Shown here: piece after piece, positions 9,847 to 10,822 of the stretch
Position numbering within the stretch: position 1 is the stretch's first letter
How the letters are laid out: each line of letters opens with the position of its first letter
Notes under the pieces: generated by a model
The model's input: only the letters and a program-made list of their open reading frames with translations
Database searches by the model: none
Told to the model about the DNA's origin: nothing
Position numbers and translations under genes: made by a program
Virus genome (UHGV): UHGV-0071483
Strand: one strand, 5' to 3'
DNA: 16,668 nt
Source of the DNA: a virus

Positions 9847-10499
9847 TGAGTAATAAATATTGCCAGGCGCTGGCGGAACTGCGGAACAAACCAGCCCATG
9901 AACTGAAGGAAGTGGGCGATCAGTGGCGCACGCCGGATAACATTTTCTGGGGAATTAACACCCTGTTTGGCCCGTTTGTTCTGGATCTGTTCACTGATGG
10001 TGATAACGCCAAATGTGCTGCGTATTACACGGCGGAAGACAACGCGCTGGCGCATGACTGGTCAGAACGTCTTGTGGAGCTTAAAGGTGCTGCCTTTGGT
10101 AATCCCCCATACAGCCGCGCCAGTCAGCATGAGGGGCAATACATCACCGGCATGCGTTACATCATGAAGCATGCCAGTGCCATGCGTGATAAAGGCGGGC
10201 GCTATGTTTTCCTGATCAAAGCTGCCACCAGCGAAGTGTGGTGGCCGGAAGATGCAGATCATATTGCTTTTATTCGCGGGCGTATTGGTTTTGAACTGCC
10301 TGTCTGGTTTATCCCGAAAGACGAGAAGCAGGTACCGACAGGCGCTTTCTTCGCTGGTGCTATTGCTGTTTTCGACAAGACCTGGAAAGGACCGGCAATC
10401 AGCTACATCGGGCGCGATGAACTTGAGGCATGTGGTGAGGCGTTTCTGGCGCAGGTTCGCCAGCAGGCGGAAAAACTGGTCAGGGAGATGGCGGCATGA
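9846..10499 (+). CDS. Phage-type DNA N6-adenine methyltransferase (orphan MTase), 217 aa
   Basis: Catalytic NPPY motif (FGNPPYSR); TAATG coupling with the upstream gene. Confidence 0.7.
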   Translation: MSNKYCQALAELRNKPAHELKEVGDQWRTPDNIFWGINTLFGPFVLDLFTDGDNAKCAAYYTAEDNALAHDWSERLVELKGAAFGNPPYSRASQHEGQYITGMRYIMKHASAMRDKGGRYVFLIKAATSEVWWPEDADHIAFIRGRIGFELPVWFIPKDEKQVPTGAFFAGAIAVFDKTWKGPAISYIGRDELEACGEAFLAQVRQQAEKLVREMAA

Positions 10500-10822
10500 C
10501 GACGTTAACTCAATGCCAGTAGCAGGTGCTGGATATGCTGATTTCTTACCAGAAAGAACGTGGCTTCCCGCCAACCAATCAGGAGGTGGCAACCATGCTG
10601 GGATACCGTTCAGTGAATGCAGCGGTGGAACATCTTCGCGCACTGGAGAAAAAAGGCGTCATCACGATAAAGCGTGGCGTGGCCCGGGGTATCACTCTTC
10701 ATACCGCGGTGAAGGACGACGACAGCGAGGCGGTCGGGATTATCCGCTCACTGCTTGCCGGTGAGGAAAACGCCAGGCTGCGTGCAACCCACTGGTTACA
10801 TGAGAGAGGCCTGAAAGTATGA
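10496..10822 (+). pseudogene. LexA N-terminal DNA-binding-domain homolog (no peptidase domain) with an in-frame TAG at 10520-10522; alternatively an intact shorter CDS from GTG 10526
   Basis: MTTLTQCQ(TAG)QVLDMLISYQKERGFPPTNQEVATMLGYRSVNAAVEHLRALEKKGVITIKRGVARGITL aligns by eye with LexA residues 1-70; ATGA coupling at 10496. Confidence 0.5.

Follow-up and report, generated by a model that had tools for sequence, protein, structure and literature searches.

UHGV virus genome UHGV-0071483 (16,668 nucleotides (nt); this whole stretch is referred to below as the window) is the early region of a lambdoid prophage, and at positions 10496-10822 it has a copy, interrupted by a nonsense codon, of an early gene that is conserved in lambdoid prophages and whose intact product is a LexA-type DNA-binding-domain protein without the LexA protease domain. 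The gene counts 108 codons when intact; in the window the translation of the frame reads MTTLTQCQ, stop, QVLDMLISYQKERGFPPTNQEVATMLGYRSVNAAVEHLRALEKKGVITIKRGVARGITLHTAVKDDDSEAVGIIRSLLAGEENARLRATHWLHERGLKV, stop, the ninth codon being an amber codon. The gene belongs to an already catalogued, very common family of prophage genes with one characterised distant analogue and is not a new system, and the window copy is a recent nonsense allele that should carry the annotation 'disrupted'. The features of this gene are listed below, with the evidence for each.

10496-10822, plus strand: LexA N-terminal-domain paralogue gene, disrupted (SfV orf42 / mEp460_046 / WP_000210170.1 family); Pfam, PDB and PHROG matches
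10520-10522, plus strand: premature amber codon at codon 9, C to T at 10520; translation and alignment with the related loci L001 and L002
10526-10822, plus strand: longest remaining open frame, GTG start, 98 amino acids (aa); list of open reading frames (ORFs)
10610-10651, plus strand: recognition helix SVNAAVEHLRALEK (LexA counterpart SPNAAEEHLKALAR), codons 39-52; HMMER alignment and helix 40-52 of an AlphaFold2 (AF2) model
10715-10804, plus strand: C-terminal two-helix tail, codons 74-103, candidate dimerisation module; AF2 helices 74-87 and 93-103

The LexA-like protein and its amber codon

The Pfam profile LexA_DNA_bind (PF01726) matches the 98-aa frame with an E-value of 4.1e-14 and a score of 52.5 bits (cutoff 23.7) over positions 12-65 of its 65, and a phmmer search of the PDB with the repaired 108-aa sequence retrieved E. 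coli LexA chains at E-values of 7e-16 to 4e-15 (1LEA, 6.9e-16). The alignment with LexA is ungapped over residues 2-69 at about 50% identity, places RSVNAAVEHLRAL of the phage protein opposite RSPNAAEEHLKAL of LexA, and leaves the residue numbering the same as in LexA. The same repaired query matches PHROG 362 (phrog_362) along its entire length (1.1e-59, residues 1-108 against profile positions 1-106). An AF2 model was built for an intact family member from a 19-sequence alignment, with a mean predicted local distance difference test score (pLDDT) of 85. It displays helices at residues 6-22, 28-35 and 40-52 and strands at 56-58 and 66-68, followed by a low-confidence linker (71-75) and by two further helices, 74-87 and 93-103. 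Foldseek superimposed the first 68 residues of this model on the LexA-DNA complex 3JSO_B with a root-mean-square deviation (rmsd) of 1.0 Å and 50% identity. We conclude that the intact 108-aa protein has three parts: a LexA-type winged helix-turn-helix (HTH) over residues 1-69, then a short and flexible linking segment, then a C-terminal tail of two helices that is conserved. This tail is without counterpart in the LexA fold and is kept across the LexA-like family, Ala97 and Leu101 being invariant in the 19 sequences.

The original prediction had described a prophage-encoded homologue of LexA's DNA-binding domain that lacks the cleavage domain, and the profile search and the structural superposition of the intact relative agree with it on the homology. 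The missing domain was found to be missing as well: the S24 peptidase is absent from the frame, which ends at 10822 where rusA (PF05866) has already begun at 10819, and the TIGR00498 lexA equivalog profile is covered only at positions 1-91 of 203, with a score of 70.8 bits, below its cutoff of 110.95. The segment LLAGEE was considered as a vestige of the LexA cleavage site (Ala84-Gly85), HMMER aligning phage LLAGE weakly to LexA VAAGE, and was rejected because relatives have AN or VG in place of AG and a helix is predicted for this segment. As the protein has no S24 autoprotease, activated RecA cannot inactivate it via self-cleavage. PADLOC returned no meaningful defence-system match for the gene.

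The residues with which E. coli LexA contacts DNA were taken from two secondary papers and are Ser39, Asn41, Ala42, Glu44 and Glu45 (PMC3091678; PMC13416735). The window protein has Ser39, Asn41, Ala42, Val44 and Glu45 at these positions, and four of the five LexA contacts are therefore kept. Among 19 family members Ser39 is invariant, Asn41 nearly invariant and position 45 mostly Glu; position 44 is never Glu (Val in the window; Ala, Phe, Thr, Leu or Tyr in relatives). The replacements E45K and E71K, at acidic residues in or near the DNA-binding surface of LexA, raise its binding to DNA in vivo (bioRxiv 10.1101/2020.07.07.191791), and by analogy the loss of Glu44 could bring a higher affinity, or else a shifted specificity. 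The free N-terminal domain of LexA is reported to keep some SOS-box binding and repression, its removal by ClpXP being needed for SOS activation (PMC10584840), which makes the idea of a phage-encoded mimic biochemically reasonable. Judging from the sequence of the intact phage protein, SOS-box specificity is plausible.

Codon 9 is TAG in the window and CAG (Gln9) in relatives, including phage mEp460. The original prediction had taken the frame to be open from end to end; its alignment with LexA was correct but ran across the stop. The closest complete genome, that of E. coli H1827/12, differs from the window at 1 base in 501, which is position 10520 (C there, T here), and because the two differ at this base alone the mutation is recent. 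A sequencing error was considered and rejected: an NCBI assembly (L016, 11 similar places) and an assembly from an independent sequencing run (L018) are both 100% identical to window positions 9035-12322 (3288 nt), TAG included, so that the amber allele is real and not a read error. The exact 61-mer with TAG was found in 0 of the 2840 gene copies of 2220 complete E. coli genomes. Counted as contigs per protein form, the intact form occurs on at least 1000, the 98-aa form on 2 and the 95-aa form on 23, and the exact 98-aa and 95-aa products are both on record as called proteins. Translation through the TAG, by read-through or by recoding, has no support, as the codon is CAG in relatives and a recoding signal is not evident, though the point received no further examination. 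Over the gene, with the TAG excluded, the window and mEp460 differ by about seven synonymous changes against one amino-acid change, a ratio on which we consider the LexA-like gene as a whole to be under purifying selection.

With TAG at codon 9, the 108-aa protein cannot be made from the window copy. At best, ribosomes would restart either at GTG 10526, which sits 4 nt past the amber stop, or at ATG 10535 (Met14), preceded by AGGT at 10524-10527 with a spacing of 7 nt, and the resulting 98-aa or 95-aa polypeptides would be the sole conceivable products. Being without residues 1-10 or 1-13, these products lose Leu4, Gln8, Val11 and Leu12, residues that vary little or not at all within the family, together with 5-8 of the 17 residues of helix 1 (a third to half of the helix). 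The window allele is thus probably null or strongly hypomorphic, as far as can be read from its sequence.

A second, independent lesion was observed in the E. coli B574 lineage (L013, at about 2990-3000, and L019), where a 7-bp duplication (CAATGCCAAATGCCAG) produces a frameshift at codons 8-9; this allele was not found in complete genomes. Both disrupted alleles, the TAG and the 7-bp duplication, sit in prophages of the SOS-box/KilA-N variant presented below, two cases from which we drew no conclusion.

The intact gene is present in 2288 of 5426 complete E. coli genomes, where it is annotated as 'LexA family transcriptional regulator', and in 50 phage records, including those of SfV (orf42), SfII, SfIV, mEp460, cdtI and the Stx2a, Stx2c and Stx2k phages. 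SfV orf42, mEp460_046 ('LexA DNA binding domain protein'), WP_000210170.1 and PHROG 362 all designate the same gene as that of the window, 97-100% identical when the amber codon is set aside and likewise located between dam and rusA; the first three are intact, whereas the window copy has TAG. An exhaustive profile-free search retrieved full-length relatives that have diverged to 42-52% identity and are built from the same two parts, and short phage proteins reduced to the LexA DNA-binding domain are frequent in the viral structure library. A literature search on the E. coli/Shigella family (SfV orf42 / PHROG 362) found no functional study.

Position in the early operon and linkage to rusA

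The neighbouring genes and sites of the window are as follows.

5577-6269, minus strand: cI, with HTH and S24 domains; profile match (Peptidase_S24, 6e-19)
6041-6060: SOS-like box TACTGTTTTTACATACAGTA inside cI, in the linker between HTH and S24, encoding NTVCKNS; 17/20 to consensus
6367-6627, plus strand: cro-like ORF
6620-7171, plus strand: cII-like gene (Phage_CP76)
7168-8319, plus strand: rha
8537-9355, plus strand: replication gene (rep)
9352-9846, plus strand: perC-like gene
9813-10499, plus strand: phage Dam methylase gene (dam); Pfam Dam, 1e-45
10819-11214, plus strand: rusA, Holliday-junction resolvase; Pfam RusA, 5e-15
11260-11279: SOS (LexA) box TACTGTATTTATGAACAGTG in the spacer between rusA and kilA-N; pattern search
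11377-12192, plus strand: KilA-N domain gene, 271 aa from ATG 11377 (ORF open from GTG 11365); Pfam KilA-N, 1e-15, and PHROG 129
12194-13189, plus strand: DUF968 / HNH gene
13203-13955, plus strand: Q

From the replication gene through rusA the genes overlap end to end (rep, perC, dam, the LexA-like gene and rusA): the stop of dam overlaps the ATG of the LexA-like gene (ATGA), and its own stop is overlapped by the ATG of rusA. A promoter scan from the replication gene to rusA yielded no promoter-like site, including for the LexA-like gene itself. Expression in the lysogen from an own promoter was therefore rejected, the dam promoter annotated in SfV being weak and its -35 differing in the window. 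Given this unbroken chain of overlapping genes and the lack of an own promoter, expression is expected after induction, and the LexA-like protein should be a delayed-early product that follows derepression and is not made in the resting lysogen. The original prediction had envisaged a protein that could keep SOS-box promoters repressed whatever the state of RecA; such a hold before induction does not fit a gene of the early chain whose expression is expected post-induction, nor a window copy from which the full protein is not made.

Beyond rusA, the KilA-N gene product is annotated as 271 aa in relatives, as in the window. A perfect stem of 8 bp closing a loop of 6 nt (CGAGTTGC AAATTA GCAACTCG) was observed at 11189-11210, overlapping the end of rusA; it has the form of a terminator on the minus strand only, and marks the left boundary of the inserted segment that holds the SOS box and the KilA-N gene.

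The association with rusA extends well beyond the window. Of the 37 family loci that reach past the gene, 29 have the LexA-like stop overlapping the ATG of rusA, an arrangement that holds down to 42% protein identity. Exceptions were found: in L012 and L008 the two genes do not overlap, rusA being 200 and 653 bp downstream respectively, and rusA is absent from two loci (L027 and L028, from Kosakonia and from an Enterobacter metagenome-assembled genome), where DUF968 comes directly next and the helical tail is kept.

In the genomes of three Kluyvera species the two genes form a single ORF that encodes the LexA domain (1-69) and, after a linker of 11 residues, an entire RusA; Pfam detects both domains in it. 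These in-frame LexA_DNA_bind::RusA fusions of 202-212 aa (L025 4001-4627, L026 4001-4639 and L041 1-546; proteins P0281-P0304) make up at least 24 protein clusters, one of which includes a Klebsiella isolate. Their linkers vary in sequence, while the length of 11 residues and the reading frame never change. One cluster has a RusA part far more diverged than its LexA part, and rusA retains its own Shine-Dalgarno sequence (GGAGG) and ATG inside the fusions. An E. coli protein of 199 aa (P0359) was considered as a second, independent RusA fusion and rejected, as it results from a deletion of the RusA N-terminus and is known from a single contig.

Other architectures were encountered, including a Citrobacter protein (L038) in which the LexA domain is joined to an unrelated C-terminal domain, and five proteins of 140-220 aa (P0156, P0160, P0153, P0131 and P0129) with two tandem LexA DNA-binding domains, again without the protease domain. 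The LexA-type domain has therefore four alternative partners, namely the helical tail, an in-frame RusA, an unrelated C-terminal domain and a second LexA domain in tandem. RusA is a dimeric enzyme, and what these architectures have in common is a LexA-type domain joined to a dimeric partner or to another copy of itself. Most simply read, binding of DNA at a two-part site would be the selected function, and the helical tail would act as the dimerisation element. On the same grounds, the tandem-LexA proteins would be another route to a bivalent, uncleavable LexA-type binder.

SOS boxes in the window and in related phages

The box at 11260-11279 is a perfect CTGT-N8-ACAG, matches the consensus at 16 of 20 positions and lies 438 nt past the LexA-like stop, with the KilA-N gene following after about 100 nt. 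The original prediction had pointed to a perfect SOS box some 440 bp downstream, in front of an antirepressor gene. The box and its place before a gene proved correct, while the gene encodes a KilA-N domain protein, presumed to be LexA-controlled, for which the role of antirepressor is putative. This SOS-box/KilA-N variant occurs in 187 of the 5426 E. coli genomes, that is in about 8% of the carriers (187 vs 2288), and in H1827/12 and mEp460 the gap between rusA and kilA-N is of about 20 nt and holds no box. The box was consequently rejected as an obligate partner of the LexA-like gene, and its link with that gene is not a general one.

In the 201 kb of family loci, 10 strong SOS boxes were counted against 0.4 in shuffled sequences. 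The box inside cI recurs in the cI of mEp460, in Shigella (L022, 18/20) and in Citrobacter (L024), its flanks varying more than the box itself. The promoter scan found none at this position by its criteria, and the box may serve LexA or the phage LexA-like protein as a target in cis. A further SOS-like box, TACTGTAAAAATAAACAGTG, spans codons 3-9 of a gene for a DNA methylase in the late region, downstream of Q, in a module that is absent from the window. It was located at 34170-34189 in SfV (L099), 41021-41040 in mEp460 (L100), 7929 in L026 and 6794 in L031, and persists in prophages of Kluyvera and Kosakonia even though the amino acids encoded by the spacer codons have changed. All phage records with the cI-internal box stretch (13/13) and all E. 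coli/Shigella phage records with the methylase box stretch (27/27) carry the LexA-like gene; Klebsiella phage Kp4866-6 has a 66% homologue.

Four other sites of this kind were observed. At the left edge of the window (13-32), the SOS-like sequence TACTGTTTGCACATTCAGTG, with one core mismatch, stands just before an ORF with a SocA/Panacea domain (35-523), which is possibly a LexA-controlled moron of toxin-antitoxin type. In the E. coli H1827/12 prophage, the SOS box TACTGTTTATGCATACAGCA (L001 10433-10452) adjoins KwaB-like (Kiwa) defence genes. In the distant relative L012, an SOS box (4560-4579) falls within a stretch resembling a promoter, immediately ahead of a block made up of an 82-aa ORF, the LexA-like gene, rusA, DUF968 and Q, and the LexA-like gene may there be itself LexA-controlled. 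The window also has, about 100 nt into rha (7271-7286), a perfect CTGT-N8-ACAG core, CTGTAAGTAACCACAG, that is conserved in mEp460, SfV and L003 and matches the consensus at 11 of 20 positions; this core is probably just conserved coding sequence.

Function and comparison with known systems

We propose, at what we put as even chances, that the family consists of RecA-insensitive LexA-like operator-binding proteins made during lytic growth, of which the window copy would probably be a null or hypomorphic allele. The intact protein would be made only after the prophage has switched to lytic growth, when the host LexA is already cleaved. It would bind DNA as a bivalent unit, its C-terminal tail supplying the dimerisation that the C-terminal domain supplies in LexA, and would recognise LexA-like CTGT half-sites. 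A repressor insensitive to RecA would in this way be put back on SOS-type operators, both those of host SOS genes and the SOS boxes borne by the phage. In a more elaborate version, which we consider quite unlikely, this RecA-proof surrogate of LexA, bivalent through its tail or through the RusA fusion of Kluyvera, would take over the phage SOS operators located in cI, in the first codons of the late methylase gene and before kilA-N, and would thus couple the lysis decision and the shut-off of SOS to a resolvase-linked binder.

Several observations weigh against this proposal. The sole characterised phage truncated-LexA protein, gp6 of GIL01, binds a different palindrome (GaCACA-nn-TGTGaC) and activates transcription (PMC6182141). 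With Glu44 consistently replaced in the family, the specificity could differ from that of LexA, and 12 of 21 family loci are without a strong SOS box within the flanks examined. These same points would favour a protein with a DNA specificity of its own, no mimic of LexA at SOS boxes, which controls some phage promoter and perhaps activates it in the way that gp6 acts on the late promoter P3. We hold this unlikely, since four of the five LexA contacts and most of the recognition helix are kept at about 50% identity to E. coli LexA, and late control is already exerted by Q antiterminators in these phages; moreover, neither a conserved palindrome of non-SOS type nor a candidate for a gp6-like site over the -35 of a late promoter was identified, without a de novo search for motifs having been run. 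The co-occurrence of the boxes with the gene may equally reflect the common descent of closely related, partly duplicated records. As to the window copy, a restart product might fold and act nonetheless.

The near-obligate linkage to rusA and the fusions could also indicate a role in recombination and not in transcription. The protein would then work physically with RusA, either as a sequence-directed subunit of the resolvase or with the RusA dimer as its scaffold, in recombination or in the processing of branched DNA. In favour of such a partnership are the 29 informative loci, out of 37 and down to 42% protein identity, where the gene overlaps the start of rusA, and the ORFs joining LexA_DNA_bind (1-65), 11 residues and RusA in three Kluyvera species genomes and at least 24 clusters, always in frame. 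We nevertheless consider it quite unlikely. The gene and its helical tail persist without rusA in L027 and L028, which argues against an obligatory partnership, and rusA lies apart in L008 (653 bp) and L012 (200 bp); all fusions may stem from one deletion event, and within them rusA retains its own Shine-Dalgarno sequence and ATG. In addition, rusA is widespread without the LexA-like gene, for instance in DLP12.

The circuit of the original prediction, in which the main job of the protein would be to shut the SOS-box promoter of the KilA-N (antirepressor) gene, as a feedback on antirepressor-mediated induction, appears very unlikely to us. It accounts for the strong box 438 nt downstream and before the KilA-N gene, for an arrangement that recalls an established route of induction, by antirepressor genes that LexA controls and that lie outside the immunity region (PMC3121763), and for the presence of both independent disrupted alleles (the TAG, and the 7-bp duplication of L013 and L019) in the SOS-box variant. 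It is at odds with the small fraction of carriers that have the box (about 8%, 187 vs 2288) and with a prophage repressor that has an S24 domain and thus looks cleavable. Moreover, with the KilA-N gene downstream and co-oriented and no terminator found on the plus strand, read-through from the early operon would express it, and the antirepressor function of its product is only putative. Taken together, the observation behind the original prediction was partly confirmed and its interpretation is partly supported.

The family is of note for its high prevalence, its RusA fusions and the SOS boxes within cI, the window copy itself being narrower in meaning. If the intact protein binds SOS boxes, about 40% of the sequenced E. 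coli strains would carry a prophage gene able to re-impose a RecA-independent repression of SOS during phage development. This would bear on SOS-driven mutagenesis, on the induction of co-resident and Shiga-toxin prophages (records of Stx2a, Stx2c and Stx2k phages contain the gene) and on toxins and defence genes that LexA controls.

Among known systems, the N-terminal domain of E. coli LexA (1LEA, 3JSO) shares with the phage protein the same winged HTH (rmsd 1.0 Å, about 50% identity over residues 2-69), as well as Ser39, Asn41, Ala42 and Glu45. In contrast to LexA and to its autocleavage fragment LexA(1-84), the protein studied here is phage-encoded, has no S24 domain and has Val for Glu44, and in place of the cleavage-site region and the C-terminal domain of LexA it has a conserved two-helix tail. 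LexA(1-84) exposes VAA-COOH, a ClpX signal, whereas the phage protein terminates in ...GLKV.

The LexA-controlled antirepressor modules of Gifsy-1 (GfoA) and Gifsy-3 (GfhA) likewise have an SOS box before a gene located outside the immunity region of a lambdoid prophage (PMC3121763). They differ from the window in that the repressor of the latter has an S24 domain and is predicted to be cleavable, and in that the downstream product is a 271-aa KilA-N protein and not a small antirepressor of Gifsy type; this comparison concerns the neighbouring KilA-N module and not the LexA-like gene.

The closest characterised analogue is gp6 of the Bacillus thuringiensis tectivirus GIL01 (PMC6182141), which is also phage-encoded, essentially a LexA DNA-binding domain alone and devoid of a protease domain. 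It is expressed from an early operon after SOS induction and shares 44% identity with the host LexA's DNA-binding domain (PMC6182141). This protein belongs to a different host and type of phage, has a 14-residue extension past its helices, recognises a non-SOS palindrome and activates a late promoter, whereas the members of the LexA-like family have a helical tail of 35-40 aa, keep most LexA contacts, adjoin rusA and are found in lambdoid phages with Q antitermination.

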